Source: a virus (taxonomy: Duplodnaviria > Caudoviricetes). Taken from it: a stretch of DNA of 64,000 nucleotides. Every line of letters starts with the position of its first letter. The stretch's first letter is position 1. Below the pieces are notes generated by a model that worked only from the letters and a program-made list of their open reading frames with translations, ran no database searches and was not told the origin of the DNA. The position numbers and the translations under genes are program-made. The stretch covers positions 26,167-90,166 of the IMG/VR virus record IMGVR_UViG_3300032007_000054, one strand, 5' to 3'. Of this stretch, positions 15,473 to 45,378 are shown piece after piece.

Positions 15473-15475
15473 ATA

Positions 15476-15497
15476 AAAAGGGCTACGTAGCTTTTCA
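15476..15497 (+). terminator. Probable terminator ending the late operon
   Basis: AAAAGggctacgtagCTTTT with inner GCTAC-GTAGC right after the last tail gene. Confidence 0.35.
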
Positions 15498-15741
15498 TTC
15501 CTACATTATTCCTCCAATTTCAGCACTTTTTACGAGTAAAATTACCTTAATTAAATTATGGCTGATTTCGCTTAATTCCTTCAAAATGGTTTAATTTACT
15601 CGTAAATAGAAGTTTTTAAGTGCTGTATAAATGTCATAAAAAGCGGTACATTCCTACAAGTTACATACATTTAAGTTCATACAAAACTTAATTGATATTT
15701 TGTTGTAGGAATGTACTGTTTTTACATTGCGAAAAATGCAT
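15498..15741. other. Putative attP region
   Basis: Non-coding, downstream of integrase; perfect 14-bp IR GTACATTCCTACAA (15646-15659) / TTGTAGGAATGTAC (15703-15716), plus a TTTACGAGTAAA / TTTACTCGTAAA IR. Confidence 0.5.
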
Positions 15742-16980
15742 CTATTTTATTTTTTCGATTTCCGACTTTAGCCATTCATCGGATCTTGTAGTATAAACTG
15801 ATTCTGTGATATCAGTGATTGTATGGCCGACAATATATTTAATTGCATACTCATTCAGTTCGTATTTCTTTGCTTGTGTGACGAAATGATCACGCCCATC
15901 ATGCGGTTTATGCTCAGGATTCAAACCAAGAGTCTCTACAATGAATTTCATGTCTTCCCAGAAGTCAGTATAGCGGTATCTATGATATTTTACTTTGCCA
16001 CTGCTGAAGACTGTTTTTCCTGTAAAAAGATATTCTGAGTCTGCTTCGACTGATTCATCATATCGTTTTTTAACCAAATCATAGATTTTTGAATGGATCG
16101 GTACAGTACGGTTGGTTCCGGCTTTTGTCTTCATACCGCCGATCATGATTCCTTTTTCAAGATCAACATTCTCAAGTCTCAGCAGTTCCATTTCTTTCGG
16201 ACGCCAGCCGGAATAACATTGGATCAGGATAATATCGATTCCTTCATACTTATAGATATTTTCCCAGAGAATTTTCATCTCTTTATCCGTGTACGGGATA
16301 TGGTGCCGTACATCCGGATCATATTTTGAATTGATCAGCATCGACATCTTGAATCCGCGGGAACAATTCTTGTCAACCAGATCATAAGCAACTGCATAAT
16401 CCAGCATCTTGTTAAAAGTAATCTTGATTCGATCCTTGATCTGCGGTGTGGCAGTCTTAATAACTCCTTTTCGGTCAATCTTTACTTCATTCATACAGTA
16501 TAAAATGTGCTTTGGACGAAGCTCGGTTACTTTCAGTTTTTCTATTTCTTTGCAATAACGCCAGGCACTTCTTGTCGATTCTATAACCGCTTTTCCAGCT
16601 TCTTCAAAGAATTTGGAACTCCATTTTTCGTATAATTCTCCTACGGTCAGCGCATTTTGGAATACATATGGATTCTTGTTATATTCCAACAGTGCCTGAT
16701 AAGCATCATTATAGGTTTCAAAATAAGCTTCCGGCTGCAGAAGTCTGCTTACCGGTTTTCCTTCGTCGTCCTTTCCAATCGTGACCATGGCTCGGAAAGG
16801 CTTACGAAGATTCATTCCTTTCAGCTCTGATATTTGTCCGAAGCCATTTGGCAGCCGGCGCCTTTTTGCCTGTTTTCTTCGTTTTGATGTACTTTCATTT
16901 TTCAGCGGATATCCGCAATGCGGACAGCTTATTGCTTTATCACTTACCGGCAGATCACATTCTGGGCATTTCGTTAACAT
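15742..16980 (-). CDS. int: Tyrosine integrase with N-terminal zinc ribbon
   Basis: CPEC..CPHCG; catalytic R (GWRPKE), K (GGMKT), HxxR (HDGR), H (VGH), Y (VYT). Confidence 0.92.
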   Translation of the reverse strand: MLTKCPECDLPVSDKAISCPHCGYPLKNESTSKRRKQAKRRRLPNGFGQISELKGMNLRKPFRAMVTIGKDDEGKPVSRLLQPEAYFETYNDAYQALLEYNKNPYVFQNALTVGELYEKWSSKFFEEAGKAVIESTRSAWRYCKEIEKLKVTELRPKHILYCMNEVKIDRKGVIKTATPQIKDRIKITFNKMLDYAVAYDLVDKNCSRGFKMSMLINSKYDPDVRHHIPYTDKEMKILWENIYKYEGIDIILIQCYSGWRPKEMELLRLENVDLEKGIMIGGMKTKAGTNRTVPIHSKIYDLVKKRYDESVEADSEYLFTGKTVFSSGKVKYHRYRYTDFWEDMKFIVETLGLNPEHKPHDGRDHFVTQAKKYELNEYAIKYIVGHTITDITESVYTTRSDEWLKSEIEKIK

Positions 16981-17021
16981 TGATATTTTCTCTCCTTGTA
17001 GGAGTTAATTATAATCCTACA

Positions 17022-17080
17022 TTTTGCATCTCCTATAGTGAGAGGACAAGGATGATCCTCTTGTGTTTTTAGAAAAGGAG
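17022..17080 (+). repeat. Cassette head repeat (promoter-like motif + leader hairpin + RBS), copy 1
   Basis: TTTTGCATCTCCTATAGTGAGAGGACAAGGATGATCCTCTTGTGTTTTTAGAAAAGGAG; near-identical copies at ~18724, ~19151, ~19581. Confidence 0.9.
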
Positions 17081-17086
17081 TGAAAA

Positions 17087-17266
17087 ATGGAATATTTTGA
17101 TGTATTGTATTATGTTGTTGATAGGAAAACAAACAATTTGCTATTTAACGGGCATGGAAACCCGTTTTACAGTGATGTACTGGAAGCTATGCTGATTATG
17201 CAGAAAGCTCATCCGGAAATGGATTTGGAAATTATTGAAGGGTCTTATACCCTTTTTGATAATTAA
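17087..17266 (+). CDS. Small cassette protein (59 aa)
   Basis: Read manually: AAGGAG-ATG 17087, MEYFDVLYYVVDRK...; stop abuts GCCC-GCAA-GGGC hairpin. Confidence 0.7.
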   Translation: MEYFDVLYYVVDRKTNNLLFNGHGNPFYSDVLEAMLIMQKAHPEMDLEIIEGSYTLFDN

Positions 17267-17290
17267 GCCCGCAAGGGCTTTTATTTTTTA
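17266..17290 (+). terminator. Repeated intrinsic terminator GCCC-(GCAA/GCAT/TACAT)-GGGC + U-tract
   Basis: Copies at 17266, 17839, 18693, 19130, 19561, 20004, 20319, 27411, 45634, 47152, 47381, 52435, each just after a stop codon. Confidence 0.85.
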
Positions 17291-17340
17291 CATCTCCTAT
17301 AGTGAAGACAATGTCTGTCTTCGAGATTTTAGGAGGAAAA

Positions 17341-17424
17341 ATGGAAAATGTTGTATATAAGTTGTCCACAGAAGAATTGTGGAAATTGTTGATTTGGTTT
17401 GCATCTGTAGAAAGGAGCAAATAA
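17341..17424 (+). CDS. Micro-protein (27 aa)
   Basis: AGGAGG RBS, MENVVYKLSTEELWKLLIWFASVERSK, TAATG-coupled to next gene. Confidence 0.5.
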   Translation: MENVVYKLSTEELWKLLIWFASVERSK

Positions 17425-17834
17425 TGAAAATATTAGAGTACTTTAAAAACAGAATAAAGTTGTATAAAGTACGAAAAGAAAGAGAAGTTCTTTCCTGCTA
17501 TATTGAGGCAGGATTAAAAAGAAAAGGTGTGTTGATCGCTTTGTGCGAAAAACGCTATATGGACTATGTATTAAAAGAGTCCAGAGTTAAATGTTTATTC
17601 AGTTCAATAGAAGATTTTCGAAACTATATGTTTAAGTTCGAATTTCCATATATTGAAAATAGTTGTTTTCTGTATGGAAAACAGCAAAAAGAATTGGATC
17701 GTAATAAAGAAAAATTATTACGAGAGGATTGTAATCCAGAGCATATTGTATTGCATTATAGTTCTGGAGATCCATCTATTTGTAAATACGATTATGTTTT
17801 ATATGCAGAATGCATTGACGTAATTGGAAAATAA
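17424..17834 (+). CDS. Hypothetical cassette protein
   Basis: ATG 17424 with AAGGAG; stop followed by repeat terminator. Confidence 0.7.
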   Translation: MKILEYFKNRIKLYKVRKEREVLSCYIEAGLKRKGVLIALCEKRYMDYVLKESRVKCLFSSIEDFRNYMFKFEFPYIENSCFLYGKQQKELDRNKEKLLREDCNPEHIVLHYSSGDPSICKYDYVLYAECIDVIGK

Positions 17835-17919
17835 TAAGGCCCGCAAGGGCTTTTATTTTTTACAACTCCTTTTAATTTTTGCCTTGAATTATGCACCTAT
17901 TCTAATAATGGAGGTGCAT

Positions 17920-18264
17920 ATGATTTCTATAGAATTCCAGCAAATTACTTATACAAATGGCTATAAAGTCAGACCAAGTCATCCTGTGGAGTGTCCAGAT
18001 TGTAAGGACGGCCTTGCCATGTGGCGATATGGATTTCGTCTGCGCAAAGTAAAAGATTTTCAGGGCAAATCCTATCAGATCAACCTGCAGCGGTATTACT
18101 GTCCGAAGTGCAGAAAGATATTTGTCATCCTACCGTCATTCCTGATCCCTTTCAAACAATATGATCGTGAGACTATTGCTAAAGTTCAAAATGGATTAAT
18201 TCAGGGATGCGGCGCAAGCTACCAGAGTATTTATCTCTGGATACGATTTTTACATATCCTCTAA
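17920..18264 (+). CDS. Zinc-ribbon protein (DUF6431/transposase-associated-like)
   Basis: CPDC..YG.R.R..I.LQRYYCPKCRKIFVILPSFLIPFKQY; GGAGGT RBS before ATG 17920. Confidence 0.55.
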   Translation: MISIEFQQITYTNGYKVRPSHPVECPDCKDGLAMWRYGFRLRKVKDFQGKSYQINLQRYYCPKCRKIFVILPSFLIPFKQYDRETIAKVQNGLIQGCGASYQSIYLWIRFLHIL

Positions 18265-18307
18265 TGAAGAGATAAAACTATATTCAAATCTCTTCAGGAG
18301 GAAAATT

Positions 18308-18688
18308 ATGTTTAAGAGTAAAAATGAAAAGATCGCTTTTGCGATCGTAATGATTATTGTTTGCGCTTTTAGCGTATGGTTTAACTGGCTTCGGCCGGTG
18401 AAACATGAGGTAAAAATTGCTCCTATGAAATGGGAGCAGCACTATTATGTTGGTGAAAATGGTTCTTATTGTGAAGGAACTGTTTGCCACATTGCTGTTC
18501 ATCAGGATGATGGACATGTATATCGATATATTGATCTGTTCAAAGATTGGACAGATAAAGAAGACGTTGATCGGTACTATTATTTAGCTCCGGTTGGTGT
18601 TGAATTTGAAGATATTGATAAAGCAGTAATTTGGTATTATGGAGAAATTACCGATGAAATAAATAGGTATATTGTATCTGATTACTAA
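18308..18688 (+). CDS. Membrane-anchored hypothetical cassette protein
   Basis: N-terminal hydrophobic helix; promoter motif at 18244, terminator at 18693. Confidence 0.7.
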   Translation: MFKSKNEKIAFAIVMIIVCAFSVWFNWLRPVKHEVKIAPMKWEQHYYVGENGSYCEGTVCHIAVHQDDGHVYRYIDLFKDWTDKEDVDRYYYLAPVGVEFEDIDKAVIWYYGEITDEINRYIVSDY

Positions 18689-18786
18689 TTCTGAGCCCGC
18701 ATGGGCTCTTATTTTTATCGCAAAATTTGCAACTCCTATAATGAGAGGACAAGGATGATCCTCTTATGTTTTAAAAAGGAGTAAAG

Positions 18787-18930
18787 ATGAAAAAGTTTTT
18801 AATTGGAATTATCAAGTACATAACGTACTATTTTGTTGGAACCGCATTTTGTTGCGGATTTTGGTACCTGCTTTTCGGCAGGGATGATAATGGAAAGAAC
18901 AAGTTGGAGAAAGGAGGCAGTAATGCCTAA
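18787..18930 (+). CDS. Small membrane protein (47 aa)
   Basis: AAGGAG-ATG after head repeat; MKKFLIGIIKYITYYFVGTAFCCGFWYLLF. Confidence 0.6.
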   Translation: MKKFLIGIIKYITYYFVGTAFCCGFWYLLFGRDDNGKNKLEKGGSNA

Positions 18931-19123
18931 CTTTGTGAATATGTATTTTGCGATCTGTTTGATCGCATGGGTTGTTGACGTGATTGCCATTGTGGTGATC
19001 ATTGCAGTAAAACCACTGAGGAAGTGGTGTTGGAACAAATACTGGGATCTTACCCGGTTGTTTTGTAAAAAAGCAAATGATTTGTCTTGGGAATTGATTA
19101 ACGATAAATTCTCAAACGAATAA
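18923..19123 (+). CDS. Small membrane protein
   Basis: AAGGAGG-ATG 18923; hydrophobic segment; followed by terminator. Confidence 0.65.
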   Translation: MPNFVNMYFAICLIAWVVDVIAIVVIIAVKPLRKWCWNKYWDLTRLFCKKANDLSWELINDKFSNE

Positions 19124-19215
19124 AATCCTGAGCCCTACATGGGCTCTTATTTTTTACATCTCCTAATATGGAGGACAAGAATGATCCTCTTAGTTGTTTA
19201 GAAAAGGAGATAAAA

Positions 19216-19554
19216 ATGTTGTTTAAAAAGAAGAAGCATAATGTTTCAGATTTAGAAGAATCGAAAATCTATGTTATTGTAATGGATGAGTACAATCATA
19301 ATAATAATTTGAAAAAATCATACAATTTGTATTATACAAAAGACTTGAAAACAGCTAGCGAACAGTTGTTAGAAAGTTGTGAAAAGCATAAAGTTATATG
19401 TGAAAAATTTGATAAACGAGTTGTAAAAAAAGAATTTTGGGGAGATACTTTATATGGCCCTTGGATTTGTTTAAAAATATATTATCCGGATATTCCGGAT
19501 GAATATTATAGCTCGTATCAATATCATATAAATGTATTAGATATTAAAAAATAA
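19216..19554 (+). CDS. AT-rich cassette protein
   Basis: AAGGAG-ATG 19216, MLFKK...; flanked by head repeat and terminator. Confidence 0.7.
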   Translation: MLFKKKKHNVSDLEESKIYVIVMDEYNHNNNLKKSYNLYYTKDLKTASEQLLESCEKHKVICEKFDKRVVKKEFWGDTLYGPWICLKIYYPDIPDEYYSSYQYHINVLDIKK

Positions 19555-19647
19555 ATTTTAAGCCCTACATGGGCTCTTATTTTTTGCATCTCCTATAATG
19601 AGAGGACAAGGATGATCCTCTTGTGTTTTTAAATAAAGGAGATAAAA

Positions 19648-20004
19648 ATGTTGTTTAAAAAAGAAAAAAATGAATATGAATCATTATGTAAAAGTATTGA
19701 AAAAGAAAGTGAATTTTTATATGTTGAAATTAGTAAGAATATTACAGAAAATGAAAATCGAATACTTGAATTAAAGGATAAAATAGATGAAATAAATGAA
19801 AAATTGGATAAATTATATGAAAAAATTGTATATAAAGAAAAATATTATAGTATTTATATAAAAAATAAAAAAACTGGTAAATATGAAGAAAGCAATTACG
19901 GAAAATTTAATAGCAATTTAGATGCTATTAATAAAATGATTGAGGAATCATATAGAACAAAACTTGATATGCAAGTAATTGAAAGAAAAATACCAAGAGA
20001 ATAA
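19648..20004 (+). CDS. AT-rich coiled-coil cassette protein
   Basis: MLFKK start identical to previous cassette; flanked by repeats. Confidence 0.7.
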   Translation: MLFKKEKNEYESLCKSIEKESEFLYVEISKNITENENRILELKDKIDEINEKLDKLYEKIVYKEKYYSIYIKNKKTGKYEESNYGKFNSNLDAINKMIEESYRTKLDMQVIERKIPRE

Positions 20005-20056
20005 GCCCGCAAGGGCTCTTATTTTTTACATCTCCTAATATGAAAGGAGATAAGTA

Positions 20057-20311
20057 ATGGAAAATAAATGTGAAATCAGAATTCTGTATGGAATTCGTGA
20101 AACGAGTAAAAGGAATTCCCCTTTATTGGGGGTAGTTTTCTCAAGTGAAGAGAAAGCAAATGAGTATATTGAACACATGTTGCCCAAAAAGTTATGTGTT
20201 GTTGAGGAAGGTTCTACTTATAATATTGAATATGAAGTAGTATTTATACGGTTGAATCCGTATTGTTCCGAAGGTTATGTTCAAGAAGTACGGTATGAAC
20301 ATGATTGGTGA
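20057..20311 (+). CDS. Hypothetical cassette protein
   Basis: AAGGAG RBS; flanked by motif and terminator. Confidence 0.7.
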   Translation: MENKCEIRILYGIRETSKRNSPLLGVVFSSEEKANEYIEHMLPKKLCVVEEGSTYNIEYEVVFIRLNPYCSEGYVQEVRYEHDW

Positions 20312-20536
20312 ATAAGATGCCCTACATGGGCTCTTATTTTTTACATATCCTTTTATTTTTTCAATCGCGAAATTTGCATACTCTATAACGGAAAGGAGTA
20401 TGTTTATATGAATTAAAGAAGAGTTAGAGGATGTAGCGCGCATCCTCTTTCTTTTTTAATTTTATCGGTACGACTTTTTATTTTCGAATTTGATAAATCT
20501 TCTTACGATAATGTGCAGAGAAAGGAGACTCAGAAA

Positions 20537-20782
20537 ATGGAAGAAGAACTTGCAATCGGTAGTGTACCGGTCTCAATCGCTGCCAAAGCGTATGGAAAGG
20601 ATGTATGCTGGGTCAGAGCAGGTCTGATCTGTGGCTGGCTGCCAATCGGCAACGCCACACGGAACGGAAAGCAGGTAACTGCGATCGAAGAAATGGACAG
20701 CAGATACGGGCGGATAAATTATTACATTTCGCCCAAGCTTTTATATGAGCAGACGGGTTATGCCTGGAAAGGAGAGCATTAA
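20537..20782 (+). CDS. Putative small DNA-binding (excisionase-like) protein
   Basis: VPVSIAAKAYGKDVCWVRAGL..GWLPIG..YYISPK, HTH-like; RBS AAAGGAG. Confidence 0.45.
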   Translation: MEEELAIGSVPVSIAAKAYGKDVCWVRAGLICGWLPIGNATRNGKQVTAIEEMDSRYGRINYYISPKLLYEQTGYAWKGEH

Positions 20783-20785
20783 CCT

Positions 20786-21211
20786 ATGACAACCCAGAAT
20801 CGTCCGGAAATATCGAAACAAAGTCCATATTGGATCAGCCGACACAGATTCTATGAACTGAAGCATTTTTGTCTCCAGTATTATGAGTGGAAGAACGAAC
20901 TGCAGTTCATCACGGAATGCCATCGACATCCGTTAGATGGCAAAGAATATTCATCCAATAACATCCGTCACACAGATCCCGTGTTTGAATGCGTAGTCCG
21001 GCGTGAAGAGCTGACAAAGAATATTGACATGATCGATAAGGCTGCAAAAGCTTGTTCGGACGATATCGGGAAGTATGTATTTAAAGGTGTGACAGAGGGA
21101 GTGTCTTTCGAGTATCTCTTTACTTCGGAAGATCGCATTCCCTGCTGCAAAGATTATTACTATGAGGCATTCCGGAGGTTTTTCTGGATCCTCTCAAAAT
21201 TGCGAAAATAA
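20786..21211 (+). CDS. Putative transcriptional regulator (ArpU/RinA-like)
   Basis: ISRHRFYELKHFCLQY..DP....RR..L..I..ID..C..YY...RRFF.L pattern. Confidence 0.4.
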   Translation: MTTQNRPEISKQSPYWISRHRFYELKHFCLQYYEWKNELQFITECHRHPLDGKEYSSNNIRHTDPVFECVVRREELTKNIDMIDKAAKACSDDIGKYVFKGVTEGVSFEYLFTSEDRIPCCKDYYYEAFRRFFWILSKLRK

Positions 21212-21393: not shown

Positions 21394-21477
21394 AGCAGGA
21401 GATGATAGGCAGGAGTAACTTGCTGTTGGGAGATAGCTACCCAACAGGTAGAGTATGTCTGAGCCACATCTCCTGCT
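21394..21477 (+). ncRNA. Candidate structured RNA
   Basis: 11-bp outer stem AGCAGGAGATG/CATCTCCTGCT, 8-bp inner stem CTGTTGGG/CCCAACAG, promoter motif at 21316, U-tract after. Confidence 0.4.
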
Positions 21478-21506
21478 ATTTTTTATTTTTTGCATTTCCT
21501 ATAATG

Positions 21507-21591
21507 AAAGAAGTTAAAGCAGCGTGAGCTGTGAGTGGGCGACGGGTCTTGTCTGCCCGCCTGGAACGGTTCGATTCCGTTCAACTTCTTT
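21507..21591 (+). ncRNA. tRNA-like RNA (non-canonical)
   Basis: Acceptor-like AGAAGTT/AACTTCT stacked on GAACGG-TTCGATT-CCGTTC T-arm; two internal hairpins; own promoter motif at 21487. Confidence 0.5.
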
Positions 21592-21626
21592 TAAATTTTA
21601 TTTTGGTTCTTATTGGAGGTATTGAA

Positions 21627-23077: not shown

Positions 23078-24115
23078 ATGGAGAAAAAGATGAATAAAGT
23101 TGAAATGCATAAGAAGATTTGTGAAGAATTAAACGACTTGTACGAACGCAAAAACGCCGATTACGGCGAAAGCTTTGCCGAACTCCGAAAGGAGTATCCG
23201 GAATCGATCTGTATCCGCCTTACAGATAAACTAAACCGACTGAAAAAACTCACTTCTGCTGATCATGAACAGAATGTCAAGGATGAATCAGTTGAAGATA
23301 CGCTGAAGGATATTGCAAATTATGCGATCATGGAATTAGTGGAACGGAAAGGTACTGAAGATGAATCAATACTAAATGATAATATTATGTTGTTCTATGA
23401 TGAAGTAACTCAACATTATTTTCAGGCAAATCAAAAACAGATTAATGCTGCGTTAACAAGTCTGTCCAAGATGATGGAAACTAATGGATATGTAACAATA
23501 TCTGATTATTTGAGGCATATTGGTTTAGGCGAATTTGACGATGATGATACATATAATCAATTAGGTTGGAATGAGAAATGGCCGGCATGCTTCGGATTTT
23601 CTACATCAGAAGGGTGTTTATGTGGAGAACCTGTAGTAAAAATAAAAGTAACGTACCCTTATACATTGGTTAATAAGTGGCAAAAATCCGTTGAACATTA
23701 TGGCATTACAGGTCAAAAATGGGGTAAACGACAAAAAGAATATAAGTCAATTCTTATAGCTTTTTATAATTATGATATGAACAAACATATTCAAAATCTT
23801 CAGCTTGTGTATAACAATACCATAGAAGAACAATACGAATACCATAGTTATGACATTTCCGGACAATCTTGGAAAGATCAGGTATTTGAAATGGCGAAGT
23901 ATATCTACACATTTCTGGATGGCGTGTATTCAGACGACCATGGCGGATCAATGTTTGTTCCGGATATGCTTGGAAGGAATGCTCTTTGGATAGCTTTGGA
24001 CGTTATAGATCATGAGAATCATGAAATCGAGTATAACATGGCAGATCCTGAAGAATACGATCGGATCACTGAGTTTTATAAGATTTATAAGAAAGGAAGC
24101 AGGAATGAAAGATAG
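23078..24115 (+). CDS. Mosaic protein: DUF1599-like + GW-type domain + HYGITGQKWG motif
   Basis: YERKNADYGESF..RLTDKLNRL (DUF1599-like); central region similar to C-termini of 27837/29009/30971. Confidence 0.6.
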   Translation: MEKKMNKVEMHKKICEELNDLYERKNADYGESFAELRKEYPESICIRLTDKLNRLKKLTSADHEQNVKDESVEDTLKDIANYAIMELVERKGTEDESILNDNIMLFYDEVTQHYFQANQKQINAALTSLSKMMETNGYVTISDYLRHIGLGEFDDDDTYNQLGWNEKWPACFGFSTSEGCLCGEPVVKIKVTYPYTLVNKWQKSVEHYGITGQKWGKRQKEYKSILIAFYNYDMNKHIQNLQLVYNNTIEEQYEYHSYDISGQSWKDQVFEMAKYIYTFLDGVYSDDHGGSMFVPDMLGRNALWIALDVIDHENHEIEYNMADPEEYDRITEFYKIYKKGSRNER

Positions 24116-24335
24116 TTTGATAGATATAATGCCGAATAGAAAATCAAATAGCGGAGATCTTAGAACATTCATAACCTATTATTATGAATCAGATGAATAT
24201 GATCGTGATCGAGAAGACGGTTTATATGTTATTGAAATTAAAGTATTTGATGGATCGAGAATCATTCGAAGAGAAAGAATCGTAACTGATAATTTACACA
24301 TTTTTGAAGACACAAATCCAGATAAGGAAGCATAA
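24105..24335 (+). CDS. Hypothetical protein
   Basis: ATG 24105 overlapping previous stop. Confidence 0.6.
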   Translation: MKDSLIDIMPNRKSNSGDLRTFITYYYESDEYDRDREDGLYVIEIKVFDGSRIIRRERIVTDNLHIFEDTNPDKEA

Positions 24336-24766
24336 TGAAAAATTTTGTTAAACGCATAATTACTTTTGTTCACGGTATCATTGCCGGTGTATTACTGTAT
24401 AAATTCTTTACAAATTCGGTTTTACTAAATTATCTGAAGAAAGACTTTGAACGTAAACCGGTATATCGTGTCCGACCTTATTATACAGACTATTCTTTTT
24501 ATAAAACACGATCCAACGATTTTGATATTTTTGACTTTGGTTTTGGAACCAGATCTGATGCAGAGCAAGTATTAAATCAAATCAAAATGGAAATAGAAAA
24601 AAATGGATTATGTACTATTGGAAGATTAAAAGAGCTTTCCGGGATCGAATCGTTATGGTCTGATCAACATAAAGGATGGACAGAATTATCTGAAAATGTG
24701 CGTGTTAGTCGATGCCGTGATGGTAAATATTATATTGAACTTCCGGATCCGGAAGAATTAGATTAA
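24335..24766 (+). CDS. Membrane-anchored protein, paralog of 30359
   Basis: N-terminal TM; FGTRSDAEQVL..GWTEL..RDGKYYIELPDP. Confidence 0.65.
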   Translation: MKNFVKRIITFVHGIIAGVLLYKFFTNSVLLNYLKKDFERKPVYRVRPYYTDYSFYKTRSNDFDIFDFGFGTRSDAEQVLNQIKMEIEKNGLCTIGRLKELSGIESLWSDQHKGWTELSENVRVSRCRDGKYYIELPDPEELD

Positions 24767-24829
24767 TCATACGCAGATGACGATAAAGAATGATAAATTT
24801 GTATCGTAAAAAATTCCCGGAGGGAGAAA

Positions 24830-25081
24830 ATGGAGAAAATCTTTGAATTTCTGGCACCTCATGCCAATTTGTTGTTTTTCCTGCTCGGTGTACTGATCAC
24901 AGTGATCATCTGGCTGATTATTCCGGCGAAGAAGCCGCATCCGATCGGGGACTTGTTCGTGATTCACTATCCGAATGGGTTTAAAGAGCTGTATCTTAGA
25001 CTTGAGGATGATATTGATACGTTTGAAAACGATCCAAAAGTTTGTTTCAATGTACTAATCGATGATAGGACGGATGAATGA
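24830..25081 (+). CDS. Membrane-anchored hypothetical protein
   Basis: TM LLFFLLGVLITVIIWLII; GGAGGG RBS. Confidence 0.65.
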   Translation: MEKIFEFLAPHANLLFFLLGVLITVIIWLIIPAKKPHPIGDLFVIHYPNGFKELYLRLEDDIDTFENDPKVCFNVLIDDRTDE

Positions 25082-25305
25082 GCGGTATTGGGTTTATTGA
25101 AGTGCATAGAGTTTTTGATAATAAAGAAATACTTATCAATGTCGCATATATTACTGATGTTCTAAGCGAGATACCCTTTGCTCATGATAATATAAATGCG
25201 ACTCTTATTGAGACCCTGGATAATCAAGTTTGGAGAGTTATTGAAACTTATGATGAAATCAAGGAATTGATTAGTCAAAGCAATAGGATCTTCAAAATGG
25301 AGTAA
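25078..25305 (+). CDS. FlbD-like small protein (tentative)
   Basis: FIEV..EILIN..I..V..TLI..V.ETYDEIKELI pattern. Confidence 0.35.
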   Translation: MSGIGFIEVHRVFDNKEILINVAYITDVLSEIPFAHDNINATLIETLDNQVWRVIETYDEIKELISQSNRIFKME

Positions 25306-25380
25306 TCGCTAAATTTTCATTTCCTAAAATGGAGAGGCAAGGATGGCCTCTTTTTGTTTTTAAATTAGAAAGGAGTGAAA

Positions 25381-25848
25381 ATGGGAAAACCGAAGTTGAA
25401 AAATATGTCATTAGAAGAACTGGAAGAGCAGTTTGAAGATTTTGATGAAGAAATCGTCCAGGATGTTGAATTATGGGACGAAAAATATGTTGATAGCAGT
25501 GATATGCTGCTGAAGGAAATAAATGATCTTTCGAATGGTGAAGAAAGATCAAGAGCGATTAAGGATTTGCAGATAATGGAGCAGATCACAAACGAACGGA
25601 TCAAAGTTCGTAATGAAAATCGTAAAATGAAGCAAGAGCTGATCCTGAAAGAGGAAGAGCTCAAAAATCAGAAGAAAGCTAATCGATGGGGCATTTTAGC
25701 TCAAATCGGAGGAACGATTTTATCGTTCGTAGGCTATTCGATTCTGTTGCAGAGGCAGAATGAATTCGAAAGCGGAGACAGTTACTCGACAAATGGAAGT
25801 CGAGGATTGACTCAGAATATCTCTCACTTTGTTGGGAGAGGTAAATAG
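25381..25848 (+). CDS. Coiled-coil protein with C-terminal TM
   Basis: Promoter motif and leader hairpin at 25306-25345; hairpin terminator ~25857-25890. Confidence 0.7.
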   Translation: MGKPKLKNMSLEELEEQFEDFDEEIVQDVELWDEKYVDSSDMLLKEINDLSNGEERSRAIKDLQIMEQITNERIKVRNENRKMKQELILKEEELKNQKKANRWGILAQIGGTILSFVGYSILLQRQNEFESGDSYSTNGSRGLTQNISHFVGRGK

Positions 25849-25894
25849 TTGTAATCAAGGCTATGACTTTGTTCATAGCCTTTTATTTTTTATT

Positions 25895-26254
25895 ATGCGA
25901 TATCACTATGAGGAACCGGAAGGTCTGGCAAAACGCTATGGGCAGATCTATCGCTGTGATCACCCGATATATACCTGGTGCACATTATTTATAGTCGGAG
26001 AACGAGGACTGGCCGTGATCCGACAGTACTTTGATTCTGAGAAAAAAGTGACTTATTGGAGAGAACTTGATCGAAATCTGACAGCAGATATTTATCTGAA
26101 TGATGGGTTCGAAGAGTACTTTCAAAAACATGCAAAGCCTTGTAAGGACGGACTGTATCCTACAGTTACGGTCCGTCAGATCATGTGGGCACTGCGGATG
26201 AAGCCGCTGCCGAAAAAACGTTGGGAGACTGTCTTTGACAGAAAGGAGATCTAA
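25895..26254 (+). CDS. Hypothetical protein
   Basis: ATG 25895; TAATG coupling to next gene. Confidence 0.65.
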   Translation: MRYHYEEPEGLAKRYGQIYRCDHPIYTWCTLFIVGERGLAVIRQYFDSEKKVTYWRELDRNLTADIYLNDGFEEYFQKHAKPCKDGLYPTVTVRQIMWALRMKPLPKKRWETVFDRKEI

Positions 26255-26472
26255 TGCCGAATGTAATCACGGAATGTGAAATCAAGCGTTCAACTATTGA
26301 CCCGGCTGTTATGCTGATCAATGTCAAATATGATAATGATTCAAAATGGAATCTGCTGCGTACATATTTTCCGAATGAACTGAGTTTTCATCCAGATGAG
26401 TTTGTCGGCCTGACAGATACAGATGCATTGAATTTCTGTTGGGAGCGGGATCTTGAGTTTCTCAGGAGTTAA
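26254..26472 (+). CDS. Hypothetical protein
   Basis: YFPNELSF..DEFVGLT motif. Confidence 0.65.
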   Translation: MPNVITECEIKRSTIDPAVMLINVKYDNDSKWNLLRTYFPNELSFHPDEFVGLTDTDALNFCWERDLEFLRS

Positions 26473-26474
26473 GA

Positions 26475-26897
26475 ATGAAAGTATATGTATTACTGAATAC
26501 TGATGATGAAATTGTAAACATTTTTGACAGTGTAGAAGCAGCGGATGAAACGATCAGTACCGATGCCTTTTTTGATGGATGGTACAAAGTAATTGATGTA
26601 TATGGAGATATATATTACAAGAATGAGTGTTTGGGGCTCATGACCCTTAAGCCTTATGAACTTATAAATTTATCAGCAAAATCTGCAGATCAGAATCCAA
26701 TGTCATGGGATGAACTTATGGTCTGGAAAGGAAATCCGGTATGGATCGAAACCCCGAATAAGAAATACTGGACAATCGTTCTTAATTCCGGAAAGCTGGC
26801 TGATGGTTCAAAAATGTTTATGGATCATGAAGAGTTTTATCATGAAAAAGACAGGGGAAAAACCTGGGAGGCTTATAAGCAGAGAAGGAGTATATGA
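26475..26897 (+). CDS. Hypothetical protein
   Basis: C-terminal W.EL..GNPVWI..W..Y module paralogous to 57917. Confidence 0.65.
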   Translation: MKVYVLLNTDDEIVNIFDSVEAADETISTDAFFDGWYKVIDVYGDIYYKNECLGLMTLKPYELINLSAKSADQNPMSWDELMVWKGNPVWIETPNKKYWTIVLNSGKLADGSKMFMDHEEFYHEKDRGKTWEAYKQRRSI

Positions 26898-27217
26898 TGC
26901 ACTTAAAACCAGAAGATACAATTATTGTGACCAGACATCCGGGTATTGTGGAATGGCTGGAAAAACATTACAGTATTACCGGAACTGTAAAGCAGTCCGT
27001 AACAATCGAAGACATTAAAGGTAAACATATCATCGGGGAAGTCCCTGCTTATGGTGCACAGTATGCTTTTTGTGTTTCTGCAATCATCTGGCCGCATCCA
27101 TGGAAAGAATATGGTACCGGAACACTAACCTATGAAGATGTAGTTGCAATGGAACCGGAGCTGTTCACTTATGTGGTCGTTCCGGTCGTTGACACAGATC
27201 CTACAGACTACTACTAA
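26894..27217 (+). CDS. Csx16-like small Rossmann-fold protein (tentative)
   Basis: IVTRHPGIVEWL..DIKGKHIIGEVP resembles SRHPGA.EW..GD.V.G.LP of Csx16. Confidence 0.45.
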   Translation: MMHLKPEDTIIVTRHPGIVEWLEKHYSITGTVKQSVTIEDIKGKHIIGEVPAYGAQYAFCVSAIIWPHPWKEYGTGTLTYEDVVAMEPELFTYVVVPVVDTDPTDYY

Positions 27218-27292
27218 AAATCGCAAAATTTTCACCTCCTATAATGGAAGGACATAGAGGTCCTTTTGTGTTTTTTATTAAAAAGGAGGAAA

Positions 27293-27403
27293 ATGTTAGG
27301 TATAGTAGCATTGTTAGTGTTCGCCTATGTATGGGGCGATTTACGTGTTGCGCTGTTTATAGCGATTGGCTTCGCATTAGCGAAAGCCTTATTGAAGAAA
27401 TAA
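27293..27403 (+). CDS. 36-aa hydrophobic peptide in its own cassette
   Basis: Motif 27221, AAGGAGG-ATG, MLGIVALLVFAYVWGDLRVALFIAIGFALAKALLKK, terminator 27411. Confidence 0.7.
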   Translation: MLGIVALLVFAYVWGDLRVALFIAIGFALAKALLKK

Positions 27404-27461
27404 ATTAGTAAAAAGCCCGCATGGGCTTTTATTTTTTCAAAGACGGAAGGAAGGGAAACAA

Positions 27462-27827
27462 ATGAAAAAGTTATGGAGTAAGATAAAAAATCTGGCGAAG
27501 AAGTTCTGGGAGAAGCTTCAGGATGCATGCATCTGGATCGTCAAAATGGTGAAGAAACTGATCGAATGGTGCATGAATAATCAGGAGGTCGTATATTGCG
27601 GTGTATTTGCAGCATCATGCGCGAATACGATTTATAAGAAATATCGCAAGACAAAGTCTGAAAAAGAGCTGGAATTTCATCGGAATAACCTTTATGACCG
27701 CAGTATGGGGCATTACTGGCAGCTGAGGCGCAGACTTACCTCAGACGAAATGCGTGAATTGGAACAGCGGAAGTATTATGGCGAGAGCATGGGAGATATT
27801 CTGGAAAGTATGAAGGTGCTCGCATAG
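27462..27827 (+). CDS. Hypothetical protein
   Basis: Amphipathic N-terminus; YDRSMGHYWQLRRRLT motif. Confidence 0.7.
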   Translation: MKKLWSKIKNLAKKFWEKLQDACIWIVKMVKKLIEWCMNNQEVVYCGVFAASCANTIYKKYRKTKSEKELEFHRNNLYDRSMGHYWQLRRRLTSDEMRELEQRKYYGESMGDILESMKVLA

Positions 27828-27836
27828 GAGGATTTA

Positions 27837-28646
27837 ATGAATATTGCTAGAGCAGGAAAGTTCGCTTTACAGTTTATAAGGCGAAACTCTCCGATCATTC
27901 TAAGCGTCGCTGCCGGAATCGGATTGGCAGCGCTTTATATTTTAACGATTAAAGAAACAGAAGAAGTTGTCCATGAAATCGAAGAAGCGCCGGAAGAGGA
28001 GGTCCATAGCTTCAAAATGGTGAAAAAAACTGTCAAAATCATGGCACCTTCTTTTGTTGTTTTACTGCTGACGATGTTCTGCATTGTACAGTCCTGCAGG
28101 ATCTCGCAGCATCGAATACGGGACCTTACTCAGTATTCAGCCATGCTGGCAGCAACTTTGAATCAGTATCGGCAGAAAAACCGGGAGATCATCGGACCGG
28201 ATGGTTCTGAAAATAATGACAAATTTATAATGTATGAAATCGCGTCTGAGAATATGCCGGATGAACTGCCTGATGATCCGGAAGATGGAATTCTGTGTGA
28301 ATTAATTGGGTATCCGCATTATTTTAAAGTTCCAAAACTTGAAAATATATATGCCGGATTTTTAAATGCAAATGAATATATGGAAACCGGCTGGGGATCT
28401 GTAGAGTTATCCAAGTTATTCAGATGGATCAATGCAATCCACTATGATGAAAAAGGTCATCGCTGTGGTATGGATGTTAATTATCTGCATTACGGATGGG
28501 AAACACACGATCTGTCAGATTGCGAGAAAGTAAGCGGATTATATCCATATATTGGCCGTATAACAGAGGACAGCGGTTTAGTTGTATATCTGATCGACGT
28601 CCCGGCTCCAAAACCGCTGGACGTAAGTTGGGAATATGGGATCTAA
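27837..28646 (+). CDS. DUF6353-like membrane/coiled-coil protein
   Basis: RRNSPIILSVAAGIG TM, second TM, coiled coil, C-terminal GW domain. Confidence 0.6.
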   Translation: MNIARAGKFALQFIRRNSPIILSVAAGIGLAALYILTIKETEEVVHEIEEAPEEEVHSFKMVKKTVKIMAPSFVVLLLTMFCIVQSCRISQHRIRDLTQYSAMLAATLNQYRQKNREIIGPDGSENNDKFIMYEIASENMPDELPDDPEDGILCELIGYPHYFKVPKLENIYAGFLNANEYMETGWGSVELSKLFRWINAIHYDEKGHRCGMDVNYLHYGWETHDLSDCEKVSGLYPYIGRITEDSGLVVYLIDVPAPKPLDVSWEYGI

Positions 28647-28986
28647 TTATTATTCTGTACGAAATTACCTGTACATTCCGAGAGATGTTCAGTGCGCTCT
28701 GGATATTCTGGAGATGTATAAAAAGAATGTTCTTGATAAGGAATTAACAAGTCATCCGTTAAGCTTTCAGCAGATGATGAATTTGTCCGAACAAAAAGTC
28801 GGTATTGACGAGTTAAAAGATTATCTGATCGACCGGGCCTATGAAGCGCCGATCCATATTCTGATCGCAAACTTTGTCTATAAGATGAATATGAATGCTG
28901 CTTTATCCGGTAATTCTCCTGAGTTGTACCGGCTGTATTGCAATATGCGCGATGCAGCTGAAGATGTAGAATTCCATTTTTTGTAA
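28636..28986 (+). CDS. Hypothetical protein
   Basis: ORF in operon. Confidence 0.65.
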   Translation: MGSNYYSVRNYLYIPRDVQCALDILEMYKKNVLDKELTSHPLSFQQMMNLSEQKVGIDELKDYLIDRAYEAPIHILIANFVYKMNMNAALSGNSPELYRLYCNMRDAAEDVEFHFL

Positions 28987-29008
28987 AAACGAAAGGAAAC
29001 AAATCAAA

Positions 29009-29794
29009 ATGGGAATTAATTTTATGAAGGATGCTGTGAAGGGCCTGTGTACCTTTGCCAAGGTAAATGCAGGTCCGATCTCGACAGTAGCGGTGATCCT
29101 TGGTATGGTCACCGCTTTTTCTTTAGCTGCCAAAGCAGGAAAGGAAGCGGCTGAAGATATTGAGGAAGCGAAGGAAGAGCTGGAGGTTGAGGAATTAACA
29201 CTCGGCGAAAAAGTAAAGTTTACCTGGAAGCGGTTTTTACCGGCAGTGTTTGTGCTGCTGCTGACCATTACAAGCTTCGTATATACGACCCGGCAGATGG
29301 CAAAGCGATATGCTGCACTGTCGGCAGCTTATAGTTTGACTGAAAGTTATCTGAAAGATTACATGGATGCAACAAAAGAAGCTGCCGGTCAAAAGAAAGA
29401 GCAAACGATTCGTGATGCTGCAAATGTAAAACAGGCAAAAAAGTATCCGATCGAACGTGGTGTTATTGAAACCGGGTACGGTGATGATCTGTTTTTTGAT
29501 GAAGTGATCACAACTAGATATTTCAGATCAACACTGGATCACGTACAAGCAGCAGAAAAAGAGCTTGCCAGTATTTATCAGGCTGAAGATTCGATTACCA
29601 TGGATGATTACACATTCCGGATGGGACTTGGTACACGATCAAATAACGGAAATAATCTTGGTTGGAAAAAATCAGGAAAGCTTGATGAAACAAATAAGTT
29701 CTTCCTGTATTATACAGCAGCGATCAGTGACAGCGGAGAACCGTATATCATTATCAGTCAGGGCCCAAACCGTATGACTGATCTTATGCGGTAG
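29009..29794 (+). CDS. DUF6353-like membrane/coiled-coil protein
   Basis: Same architecture; KRYAALSAAYSL, FFDEV..RYFRST, LGW. Confidence 0.65.
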   Translation: MGINFMKDAVKGLCTFAKVNAGPISTVAVILGMVTAFSLAAKAGKEAAEDIEEAKEELEVEELTLGEKVKFTWKRFLPAVFVLLLTITSFVYTTRQMAKRYAALSAAYSLTESYLKDYMDATKEAAGQKKEQTIRDAANVKQAKKYPIERGVIETGYGDDLFFDEVITTRYFRSTLDHVQAAEKELASIYQAEDSITMDDYTFRMGLGTRSNNGNNLGWKKSGKLDETNKFFLYYTAAISDSGEPYIIISQGPNRMTDLMR

Positions 29795-29889
29795 ACTCGC
29801 GAAAAAAACATGGCCTTTAAAGAGAGACAAACAGTCTCTCTTTAATTTTGTTAGTTATTGTTATGTGTAAAAAAGAAAGGAAACAAATT

Positions 29890-30279
29890 ATGGCAGAAAG
29901 TGATGTTATCGTTGAAAACGGCGAAGTTGCGCCGTTCGATATAGAAACCCAGGAAACTGGGATTGTTCCCGTGAATAACGGGGAAATTCAAGAAGTGACC
30001 GCCGGTCAGGCGGCCGTTGTATTAGGAACCACCATGCTGGTGGGATATGGAATCGGCAAACTCGGTGAGTTTGTCTTTGATAAATGGGTTGGTCCAGCTT
30101 GTGGAAAGCTGGCTGACAAATGGAAAGAGCGTAAGGAGAGAAAAAACGCTAAGAAGCTGAAAGATCAGGTCGAAGTGACCGTGATTAAACCGGATGAATC
30201 CGAAAGTTCTGAAGAAGAACAGAAGGATAAATATGAAAAAGCGTCGGAGAAGATTCGCGCAAATGGATATAAGAAATAA
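29890..30279 (+). CDS. Membrane-anchored hypothetical protein
   Basis: ATG 29890 after motif/hairpin at 29797; terminator hairpin ~30303-30340. Confidence 0.65.
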   Translation: MAESDVIVENGEVAPFDIETQETGIVPVNNGEIQEVTAGQAAVVLGTTMLVGYGIGKLGEFVFDKWVGPACGKLADKWKERKERKNAKKLKDQVEVTVIKPDESESSEEEQKDKYEKASEKIRANGYKK

Positions 30280-30358
30280 TTGCTTTTGAAGCAGTTGTTG
30301 TAAAGGGGAGGAATCTTTTACAGATTCTTCTCCTTTTTTATTTTAAATAGGAGGTTCA

Positions 30359-30946
30359 GTGAACGAAAATCAGCAAATCGAACCTGTAGCAAAAGGGCAG
30401 ATGTCAACAAATCGAAAAGGTGTATTCAGAAAGATCTATGATGACATCATTGTGCCGAATGTAGAAGAATTAAAAAATAATTTTATTGATGATGTGATCG
30501 TTCCGCAGACAATGGACTGGATGTCGAGTCTGTTGTTTGGCATGCTGAACGAGATTTTTAAAACACCCGGAAGTTCATCCTCTTCTTATTTTTCGGGTCG
30601 ATACAGAGATTACAACAAAGCTTACCGCAGCAGTTCCGGTTTGGGATCTTCTAGACGTACTGAACGGCGAAATGAATCTAGGCGGGATGATGTCCGGGAT
30701 TGGGAACAGGTGTGTTTCGATACACGCTCTGACGCGGAGCGAGTGATCTCAAGTATGAAAGCCACGATCATGGATTATCAGGTTGTGACGATCGGTGATC
30801 TGTTCAGTTTCGCCGGAATCGAATCTAGCTGGACAGATAATAAATATGGCTGGGCAGATCTCAGCCGGGCCAGAGCAGTACGCGGTCGGGATGGAAAATT
30901 CTATTTGGATCTTCCGAATCCGATGGCGATCGATGATGACAATTAA
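30359..30946 (+). CDS. Conserved phage protein, paralog of 24335
   Basis: GTG with AGGAGG; FDTRSDAERV..VVTIGDLF..DNKYGWADL. Confidence 0.7.
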   Translation: MNENQQIEPVAKGQMSTNRKGVFRKIYDDIIVPNVEELKNNFIDDVIVPQTMDWMSSLLFGMLNEIFKTPGSSSSSYFSGRYRDYNKAYRSSSGLGSSRRTERRNESRRDDVRDWEQVCFDTRSDAERVISSMKATIMDYQVVTIGDLFSFAGIESSWTDNKYGWADLSRARAVRGRDGKFYLDLPNPMAIDDDN

Positions 30947-30970
30947 ATTCAAAATGGAGAAATAAAGGAT

Positions 30971-31897
30971 ATGAATGCAAAACTGGCAATGGAAAAAGCA
31001 GGGTTTGTCTTAAGACAGGCAAGCCCTGAGATTTTAATTGGTGTCGGTATTCTTTCCGGAATTGCTGCGATCTTTACAGCATGTTCCAAAATGAAGAAAG
31101 CCGAAGAAGTTACAGAAGAATTCCATGAAGAAATGGAAGTTATTGCAGAGGAAGAAGAAAAAGGTACAAAAGAATATGCAGCAGCATCTTTTAAAGCCGG
31201 AACGAGATTGTTCGGACGTTATCTGAAGACATTCTGGCTGCCGATCCTGCTGGAGATCTTATCAATTATCGCTATTTGGTACAGTCACGGGATCATGGTA
31301 AAAAGGAATGCGGACCTGGTATCCGCCGCAATTGTTCTGACGCAGCAGCTTGATAAATATCGGGATCGGGTCCGGGAAAAGGTCGGTGATGAAATCGAGA
31401 ATGATCTTTTCTATGGTGTCACCAATAAAAAAGTTGGTGAGACGATCGTTAAAGATGAAAAAGGAAAAGATAAGAAAGTGAAAGTCGTCGAAAAGATTAT
31501 TGAAAACGGAGCTGAAGGGCCATTTGACCGGGTGTTTGATAAAAATAATCATAGTTTTCAAGGTCAGCCCGGTGCGGATATGGGATTCCTCAGAGCTGTT
31601 CGGACAAGTGCTGAAGATATTATGCGAGGCCGTGCAACAAAAAGCAGCAATGGCTGGATCACGATTAATGAAGTACTTACTCAACTTGGGTTTGAACCGG
31701 TAGAGAACGGATTTAATTGGGGTTGGGTGTATAGTCGTTTTGATCCGAAGTATCAATCGACTTATGTTGATTTCGGTGTGAATGATTATTCCAACATGGT
31801 TGTTCGTAATTTTGAAAATGGTCTGGAACCGGTGATGCCTCTGCACTTCAACTGCAAACCATTTGAATTTAGTGAATTGAAGCTTGCGAAGATCTAA
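30971..31897 (+). CDS. DUF6353-like protein
   Basis: QASPEILIGVGI, YRDRVREKVGDE.E, GWITINEVL..LG..GFNWGW, YVDFG. Confidence 0.7.
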   Translation: MNAKLAMEKAGFVLRQASPEILIGVGILSGIAAIFTACSKMKKAEEVTEEFHEEMEVIAEEEEKGTKEYAAASFKAGTRLFGRYLKTFWLPILLEILSIIAIWYSHGIMVKRNADLVSAAIVLTQQLDKYRDRVREKVGDEIENDLFYGVTNKKVGETIVKDEKGKDKKVKVVEKIIENGAEGPFDRVFDKNNHSFQGQPGADMGFLRAVRTSAEDIMRGRATKSSNGWITINEVLTQLGFEPVENGFNWGWVYSRFDPKYQSTYVDFGVNDYSNMVVRNFENGLEPVMPLHFNCKPFEFSELKLAKI

Positions 31898-45282: not shown

Positions 45283-45378
45283 GGGTTCTTACCCTCTTTA
45301 TTTTCTCCCAAGATTTGCATGTTCTATAACGGAGGAGACAAGGATGATCTTCTCTTAGTTGTTAGTAGAAAGGAAAAA

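Follow-up and report, generated by a model that had tools for sequence, protein, structure and literature searches.

The window analysed here is a stretch of 64,000 nucleotides from a virus of the Caudoviricetes, corresponding to bases 26167-90166 of the 90,166-bp IMG/VR virus record IMGVR_UViG_3300032007_000054. Its source is a gut or rumen phage with a genome of about 90 kb, a temperate relative of Faecalibacterium phage FP_oengus. We studied an array of small gene units at 17011-20457, located between the integrase gene and the first conserved early genes. The array consists of eight units that carry open reading frames (ORFs) and one empty unit, and these units are probably accessory genes that are exchanged by recombination at the regulatory repeats that bound them.

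Anatomy of the array

Nearly all genes of the window are carried on the + strand. The structural and lysis genes end near 15472, and they are followed by a likely attP region with inverted repeats (15473-15741), by the integrase and then by the array, so that the attP region is on the far side of the integrase from the array. The integrase start codon (16980) and the first head core of the array (from 17026) are 46 bp apart, close to the distance of about 40 bp given in the initial annotation of this region.

All features of the array are listed in Table 1. The general order within a unit is a promoter-like head, a leader hairpin, an AAGGAG ribosome-binding site (RBS), one or two ORFs of 27-136 amino acids (aa) and a terminator. 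The head core can be written as (A/G)CA-N5-TATAAT-like hexamer-G. The terminator is (A/G)AGCCC-loop-GGGCT(C/T) followed by a T-run that abuts or overlaps the next head, and at six of the eight junctions the promoter-like head is fused to this T-run. In six of the eight ORF-bearing units a hairpin of -7 to -9 kcal/mol begins directly after the hexamer, at the conserved G, in line with the earlier statement that the leader is usually a hairpin.

This grammar was recognized in the initial annotation, and it is confirmed here with some corrections. Seven consecutive units had been counted; the units are indeed consecutive, but there are eight with ORFs and an empty one at 20361-20457. Motif heads are found in most units, except that the DUF6431 unit (17920-18264) has a degenerate head only. 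Terminators generally close the units, except that none separates the DUF6431 gene from unit 4, whose head is inside that gene.

Table 1. Positions of the array units and of the genes that anchor the array on both sides. Heads, hairpins and terminators are predicted features.
Feature	Position	Strand	Details
Tyrosine integrase with N-terminal zinc ribbon, left anchor	15742..16980	-	Pfam Phage_integrase 1.9e-15 and Zn_ribbon; PHROG 1 integrase 7e-34
Unit 1	17011..17289	+	head 17011-17043 without CGCG box; hairpin 17040-17062; RBS 17075-17081
Unit 1 cargo	17087-17266	+	ORF of 59 aa, no family match; terminator 17265-17289
Unit 2	17275..17861	+	head core 17290-17304; hairpin 17304-17322; terminator 17836-17861
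Unit 2 cargo	17341-17424; 17424-17834	+	upstream ORF of 27 aa; ORF of 136 aa, GC 29%
Unit 3	17861..18264	+	degenerate half-head 17861-17885; DUF6431 zinc-ribbon gene 17920-18264 (114 aa, GC 40%), Pfam DUF6431 5e-17
Unit 4	18237..18716	+	head 18237-18269 within the 3' end of the DUF6431 gene; hairpin 18266-18295; terminator 18693-18716
Unit 4 cargo	18308-18688	+	ORF of 126 aa, N-terminal membrane helix
Unit 5	18714..19155	+	full head with CGC box 18714-18746, top array score 35.9; hairpin 18743-18765; terminator 19130-19155
Unit 5 cargo	18787-18930; 18923-19123	+	ORFs of 47 aa and 66 aa, the latter with membrane helix
Unit 6	19141..19585	+	head 19141-19173; hairpin 19170-19190; terminator 19560-19585; direct repeats of about 100 nt on both sides
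Unit 6 cargo	19216-19554	+	ORF of 112 aa, GC 25%
Unit 7	19571..20027	+	head 19571-19603; hairpin 19600-19622; terminator 20003-20027
Unit 7 cargo	19648-20004	+	ORF of 118 aa, GC 19%, GC at third codon positions 9%
Unit 8	20013..20342	+	head 20013-20045, no hairpin; ORF 20057-20311 (84 aa); terminator 20319-20342
Empty unit	20361-20457	+	full head 20361-20393; RBS; ORF of 2-3 codons only; strong terminator 20426-20457
Conserved early genes, right anchor	20537..21211	+	81 aa (PHROG 6058) and 141 aa (PHROG 11237); adjoin the integrase in empty-gap relatives

The repeats are far beyond what is expected by chance. On the + strand the head core has 6 matches (with up to 3 mismatches) against 0.02 expected, and the terminator pattern has 13 matches against 0.02 expected. 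Between 15 and 29 kb we find 32 terminator-like sites, a four-fold enrichment over the 7.9 +/- 3.4 seen in shuffled sequences. The heads at 17015, 18718, 19144 and 19575, earlier described as near-identical, form one 62-nt family with a gapless identity of 61-90%. Further, 19193-19229 and 19625-19661 are 89% identical, through the RBS and into codons 1-5 of the ORFs at 19216 and 19648 (MLFKK), as had been pointed out. Paralogy of units 6 and 7 is ruled out: their proteins are unrelated beyond MLFKK.

Some smaller features of the array can also be mentioned. The leader hairpin loop CAAGGATGA (or CATGGATGA, AAGGATG) is constant while the stems vary with compensation (AGAGGA/TCCTCT, AGAGGC/GCCTCT, GAGCAGA/TCTGCTC). 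Such loop-conserving hairpins are located at 17040-17062, 18743-18765, 19170-19190, 19600-19622, 25331-25353 and 45318-45342, and also in the related locus L007; the loop may be a binding site. The terminator of the empty unit reads AGAGGATG...CATCCTCT plus a T-run, and a degenerate half-head at 20342-20365 precedes this unit. Here and at 17861-17885 the half-head has the form TTTTTTACA-N5-TTTTA-T-run, comes after a terminator and lacks both a proper hexamer and the G. In three phages (this one, L007 and L008) it is kept at the right-hand edge of the array, and it may be a decayed promoter or a scar of recombination.

Cargo of the units

The cargo has a guanine-cytosine (GC) content of 19-37%. 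The window as a whole has 40%; the integrase (39.6%) is near this value and the next conserved gene (49%) above it. The claim that the cargo is more AT-rich than the core genes therefore stands, with the exception of the DUF6431 gene (40%), which alone looks native.

Membrane helices are predicted in three of the eleven cargo ORFs. Except for DUF6431, no family, function or defence match was obtained for the cargo with Pfam, PHROGs and PADLOC, and for units 2 and 4 the ESM Atlas gave nothing that was usable as a structural lead. The 126-aa protein of unit 4 belongs to a small family with 7 representatives. No match to the unit 2 protein was found among viral contigs. In 5.8 billion protein clusters there is no homologue of units 6 and 8: unit 6 finds only itself and a twin contig, and unit 8 only itself. 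The cargo would probably serve host takeover, exclusion or counter-defence.

The start of the array beside a divergent tyrosine recombinase had been taken as an integron-like geometry, although no attC R-box consensus was seen. In favour of it are the 46 bp between the recombinase and the first head core, and cassettes that are repeat-bounded, mutually unrelated and AT-rich. By this reading the adjacent recombinase would capture and excise the cassettes by site-specific recombination at the repeats. The recombinase itself does not point in this direction: no integron-integrase model was reached, and NCBIfam gave only sub-threshold matches to generic XerA/XerD (50.7 bits against a cut-off of 220). 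Nor is there a copy of the head in the likely attP region.

Variability among related phages

We gathered 131 related loci via the integrase, and 97 of these allowed us to locate the start of the integrase as well as the first conserved early gene (81 aa, PHROG 6058). The gap between the two is only 133-195 bp in 45 of the 97 loci, i.e. the genes are adjacent. Such an empty gap beside an orthologous integrase argues against a capture system driven by this enzyme. Larger gaps increase stepwise (350, 430, 529, 565, 629 ... 2022, 2104, 2520, 2619 bp), and the gap of 3556 bp in the window is the largest of the 98 phages.

The most common resident of the gap is the DUF6431 gene, with homologues in the same gap in 46 related loci. 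This zinc ribbon, otherwise found at the N-terminus of ISL3-type transposases, is the standard neighbour of the integrase in this phage family; truncated versions of its gene occur in some loci (L104, L051).

The nearest clade (L007, L008, L049) shares with the window a backbone of DUF6431 and two membrane proteins of about 120 and 60 aa. The 126-aa protein of unit 4 shows 31% identity with its positional equivalent in L008, and the 66-aa protein of unit 5 is weakly similar to a 60-aa membrane protein at the equivalent position in L007. The 136-aa protein of unit 2 has 28% identity (E 5e-6) to the second ORF of the last unit in L007, so this unit is differently placed in the two phages, second in the window and last in L007. 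This type of unit combines a small upstream ORF with one of 120-136 aa. In L008 an unrelated ORF takes the place of the second one, joined at the RBS/ATG on its left side and at the terminator on its right. Counterparts in the nearest relatives are found only for these four: DUF6431, the 126-aa and 66-aa membrane proteins, and unit 2. For units 1, 5a, 6, 7 and 8 none is found in 1.85 Mb of DNA from relatives.

An upstream ORF of 27-28 aa (MEN...KLS..LW.L.I), with an internal CCACAG...TGTGG hairpin, occurs at 17341-17424 in the window and in the last units of L007 and L008. It precedes three different downstream ORFs in the three phages.

Closer relatives of this phage exist, as an integrase of at least 90% identity is found on contigs of up to 92 kb in the protein-cluster records. 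At this identity the number of contigs, counted in records that show only the longest contig per sequence, is 25 for the integrase, 33 for DUF6431, 21 for unit 1, 17 for unit 2, 9 for unit 7, 6 for unit 4 and 2 each for units 6 and 8.

A promoter-like motif shared by the phage family

The heads of the array belong to a motif that is used in a much wider group of phages. A 33-nt weight matrix, seeded on the copies in the window and iterated over the relatives, converges on tTCGCGAAAATTACA-N5-TATwAT-G-rrr. In the early regions of the relatives it has 919 matches on the coding strand and 1 on the other strand, representing 450 distinct sites. In the genome studied here there are 19 sites, all on the + strand and all within 17-60 kb of the window, with none in the late region.

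A degenerate version of the pattern gives 425 matches on the + strand and 0 on the - strand in the 1.85 Mb of related loci. In three bacterial metagenome-assembled genomes (10.2 Mb) its matches are almost confined to the contig that bears the phage, and the motif is therefore not a type of host promoter. A scan of viral contigs with the exact head and leader pattern gave no match outside the phage's own record.

Copies of the motif are also present in cultured phages: 14 in FP_oengus, 9 in the lytic Arthrobacter phage Circum and 8 in the virulent Lactococcus phage 1706. In all three it is on the coding strand, in a region of small genes after the tail genes, and all three encode the same RNA-polymerase-like protein. 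These phages are included in a supercluster that is defined by a polymerase similar to RNA-dependent RNA polymerase (RdRP) and flanked by helix-turn-helix (HTH) domains (bioRxiv 10.1101/842583), and arrays of small membrane-protein genes after the tail genes have been described in the Arthrobacter phage paper. Promoters are mentioned in neither of these two papers, and searching the openly readable literature by sequence words we found no prior description of the motif.

A motif copy precedes an operon for an endonuclease, an exonuclease and the polymerase in the window (59875), in FP_oengus and in Circum. At 59875-59940 this copy is immediately followed by a hairpin of -12 kcal/mol and nine consecutive T, which resemble a terminator directly behind the promoter; FP_oengus is alike at 27679.

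Within the array, six of the nine heads are without the CGCG box, the most informative part of the family motif, because there the T-run of the terminator is fused directly to the ACA core. This fusion of terminator and CGCG-less promoter recurs at 17291, 19157, 19587, 20029 and 21493. The presence of the same derived fusion at five places indicates that the composite has spread as a unit.

Start site, geometry and likely reader

The geometry of the motif differs from that of sigma-70 promoters. Upstream of the heads, neither a -35 element (at 16-18 nt) nor a TG extension is present, and a scan for sigma-70 promoters showed no enrichment, with 42 sites where 51.8 were expected. Only 54% of the 450 sites have A at position 2 of the hexamer, and in FP_oengus the hexamer is CTTTAT, without the -11 A. 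In at least seven lineages, FP_oengus included, tRNA or tRNA-like genes start 1-4 nt past the conserved G; a sigma-70 start, 6-8 nt past the hexamer, would truncate the tRNA-like genes. Taken together, the position of these genes, the variable hexamer and the lack of a -35 element make the conserved G just after the hexamer the most likely start of the mRNA.

A hairpin begins at the conserved G in 63% of the sites of this clade, compared with 4% elsewhere. With a start at the G, this clade-specific hairpin would become a stem-loop at the 5' end of the transcript.

At 21477-21594 a promoter copy is located before a tRNA-shaped RNA with an acceptor-like AGAAGTT...AACTTCT and a T-arm with GGTTCGATTCC, which is not called by ARAGORN. 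At the equivalent place the relatives have 'tRNA-???' genes with 2- or 4-nt anticodons, 1-4 nt past the G.

The motif can thus be described as a putative phage-specific promoter with a non-sigma-70 geometry. Its specificity and geometry are observed directly, and promoter activity is what they suggest. The reader of the motif is probably the phage's own RNA polymerase, a 916-aa protein of the two-barrel type encoded at 60879-63629, where the early region ends. It matches PHROG 4291 ('RNA-dependent RNA polymerase') over the full length and has a weak match to RdRP in Pfam; each of its ends carries HTH or sigma region-4-like domains. Proteins with 46% identity to it occur in FP_oengus and in about 250 records of actinophages and lactococcal phages. 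FP_oengus has the same gene order as the window, and its integrase and polymerase are the nearest cultured homologues.

Breakpoints between close relatives

The loci L007 and L008 are 93-95% identical but differ in two divergent patches, bounded on the left by a promoter or an RBS and on the right by a terminator. The second patch starts just past a promoter and ends at a terminator.

A wider set, taken from relatives that align at an identity of at least 85%, comprises 393 unique indels or replacements with a size of 60 bp or more, which are not independent of each other phylogenetically. Of the left ends 62%, and of the right ends 57%, are no more than 60 nt away from a promoter hexamer, compared with 13% of random positions. 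The left ends cluster at -30 to +30 and the right ends at -60 to 0 relative to the promoter. The variable segments therefore span from just past one promoter to the next terminator or promoter.

Junctions between genes that bear the motif make up 38% of all junctions, and they hold 75% of the left and 67% of the right breakpoints that fall at junctions, a 3- to 5-fold preference over motif-less junctions. Further, of the 59 unique clean indels 29 end in promoter copies on both sides, and their flanks overlap by a median of 19 nt. In 22 of these 29 the overlap is at least 10 nt (range 10-30 nt) and consists of the promoter or terminator repeat itself, a signature of direct-repeat recombination. 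Other clean indels use terminator copies in the same way. Between Circum and Mudcat, both without integrase, an indel of two units (633 bp) has an overlap of 40 nt inside promoter copies.

The initial annotation had pictured a plug-and-play platform of accessory genes that is exchanged at the repeats, and proposed comparing cassette content and order among relatives. This picture is borne out: the size of the gap, its content and its order all vary, and the breakpoints concentrate at the repeats, the opposite of a fixed set of genes with breakpoints elsewhere.

How the units may be exchanged

The explanation that we favour, with a probability of about 0.72, is that the array consists of promoter-bounded accessory units that are exchanged via repeated terminator-promoter-leader composites, similar to the PeSL cassettes of T4-like phages, and that the integrase is not visibly involved. 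The array would be the accessory, hyperplastic start of the early region. Each unit would be a self-contained mini-operon ('moron') with a phage-specific promoter, an mRNA with a 5' hairpin, a strong Shine-Dalgarno sequence, small ORFs and an intrinsic terminator. Composites of 50-100 nt recur in direct orientation and could therefore act as portable homology. Recombination between copies, in one genome or between co-infecting relatives, would delete, duplicate, move or swap whole units and leave the genes intact. Catalysis would probably be by the phage's own annealing protein and exonuclease; the genome carries an exonuclease and a homologue of the protein that is annotated as annealing protein in FP_oengus. 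The integrase would adjoin the array only because the temperate members of the group place it between the end of the late and lysis genes and the start of the early region.

Several observations weigh against this explanation. The exchange in this very array is deduced from relatives with 45-59% integrase identity and from protein-cluster counts, and the functions of promoter, start site and terminator are putative. The heads without CGCG box score 13-16 or lower, compared with 26-36 for full sites, so they may be weak or read differently. The polymerase gene is itself behind a motif copy (59875), which is a bootstrapping problem if this polymerase is the sole reader. As to the breakpoints, 19% of them are inside genes. 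Their position at promoters could partly reflect selection, if only changes of whole units survive, and it could partly be a bias, in that accessory genes are those that carry their own promoters. Alignments also run on into a motif that is common to both sequences. The overlaps at the junctions point to true recombination between repeats in no more than about half of the clean indels.

Some of these points lead to the strongest competing explanation, namely that the repeats are regulatory signals and nothing else, while the turnover takes illegitimate or other routes and selection keeps the events that fall between genes. Besides the intragenic breakpoints, this would account for the quarter to third of junction breakpoints that are at motif-less junctions, for the half of the clean indels that do not have both ends at promoters, and for the indels between Circum and Mudcat, most of which are far from motif sites. 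It does not account well for the repeat overlaps in promoter-to-promoter indels, for the preference of breakpoints for motif-bearing junctions, or for the five heads of this genome that share one derived fusion. We consider it unlikely.

It is more doubtful that the heads are ordinary host sigma-A promoters with TATAAT as -10 element, and that the hairpin with its U-run is a promoter-proximal attenuator. The hexamers of the array are near-perfect (TATAAT, TATAGT), and several leader hairpins are followed by T-runs and called terminator-like (25331, 27244). This reading is, however, at odds with the geometry described above: the missing upstream elements, the variable position 2 of the hexamer, and tRNA-like genes that begin too near to the hexamer for a sigma-70 start. 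Moreover, about 10 Mb of bacterial DNA lack the motif, and yet it is kept from phages of Clostridia to phages of Arthrobacter and Lactococcus.

A motif that is asymmetric, in a single orientation, located in short intergenic spaces and present in about 20 copies per genome also resembles a stoperator-type repressor-binding site. Such a role is very improbable, given that the motif occurs in the virulent phages 1706 and Circum, always precedes an RBS by 20-60 nt, is restricted to the early region and is the sole candidate promoter for the tRNA-like genes that begin just after it.

The integron-like mechanism has hardly any probability left, as the same heads, terminators and kind of indel are found throughout the early region, tens of kb from the integrase, and in the integrase-less lytic phages Circum, Mudcat and 1706, as each cassette has its own promoter-like head and terminator and is thus not promoterless, and as the repeats are direct regulatory sequences and not attC-type imperfect palindromes, the only palindromes being the 4-6-bp GC stems of the terminators. 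In summary, what was first observed at this locus is real, and its interpretation is partly supported: the platform holds by another route and the integron fails.

Other features of the early region

The early and replication genes after the array include DUF6353 paralogues, a D5-like primase/helicase, NrdD, a helicase and an exonuclease. In 23078-31897 the DUF6353 genes number at least four, one of them fused to DUF1599, and FP_oengus has three. A 276-aa protein at 47778-48608 has a C-terminal domain that resembles the C-terminal domain of the RNA polymerase alpha-subunit, together with helix-hairpin-helix motifs. No known RNA family was found with Rfam in 15-29 kb, and ARAGORN called no tRNA in the window.

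Comparison with known systems

In T4-like myoviruses, PeSL (promoter-early stem-loop) cassettes are composite elements of terminator and early promoter, located on either side of ORFans in hyperplastic regions (Arbiol, Comeau & Krisch 2010, PMC2839356; Comeau et al. 2014, PMC4122927). They mediate indels and replacements and form mini-circles, without a dedicated recombinase (PMC2839356, PMC4122927). The array shares with them the composite of an intergenic terminator stem-loop and an early-promoter element (fused at six of the eight junctions), the position of these elements around ORFans in a hyperplastic region (a gap of 133-3556 bp in 98 phages), and breakpoints within the elements between close relatives, here seen in relatives that are not close kin of this phage. 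The promoter is different: in PeSL it is a strong early promoter of the sigma-70 type, whereas here it is phage-specific, has no -35 element and has a hexamer that abuts the putative start. Further, the phages here belong to the temperate siphovirus-type supercluster of FP_oengus, 1706 and actinophages, and in this clade the element extends to the 5'-terminal leader hairpin, the RBS and sometimes the first codons. The mechanism thus matches the known PeSL. New are the phage group, the phage-private promoter of a non-sigma-70 type, and a repeat that reaches the hairpin, the RBS and the first codons.

The morons of lambdoid phages, described by Hendrix and co-workers, consist of a promoter, a gene and a terminator inserted between genes that are adjacent in relatives, and they have a deviant composition. 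The units of the array are alike in having their own promoter and terminator, in lying between adjacent genes of relatives and in their deviant base composition. In contrast to the morons, there are eight in a row, with one phage-specific type of promoter instead of host-type promoters.

With integrons the array has in common a tyrosine recombinase that is divergent from a series of unrelated small genes set apart by repeats. It differs in that each cassette brings its own promoter and terminator, the repeats do not resemble attC, the recombinase is a normal phage integrase and the architecture is found in relatives without any integrase.

Promoters of the T7 class have a conserved block up to the start, with an AT-rich, TATA-like segment before a purine-rich start. 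Their leaders have a stem-loop at the 5' end of the mRNA, followed by an AT-rich spacer and a strong RBS. The motif and leader of the array share this layout, including the AT-rich spacer and the strong RBS. There is, however, no sequence relation, and the candidate polymerase is not of the T7 type but of the two-barrel type (YonO / RdRP-like) with HTH domains.

Significance

The findings would extend the shuffling of regulatory cassettes, so far described from lytic myoviruses of the T4-like group, to widespread temperate phages of the gut and rumen and to their actinophage and lactococcal relatives. In this phage group the portable element would be a phage-private promoter.

A more far-reaching idea is that the composite is a dedicated device for gene capture and insulation in the whole supercluster with two-barrel RNA polymerases. 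It would be read by the phage polymerase only, the terminators and hairpins with U-runs would stop the host polymerase, the annealing protein and the exonuclease would spread it, and the derived CGCG-less heads of the array would be a second class of promoters that is read in another way. We regard this idea as tentative and unlikely. If it is true, any ORF that lands between two copies would at once be an early gene under the control of the phage.

The gap between the integrase and the first conserved early gene is a precise hot spot for orphan genes, and it is a good place to seek functions in exclusion, host takeover or counter-defence. The composites could also be natural landing pads for the engineering of these phages.

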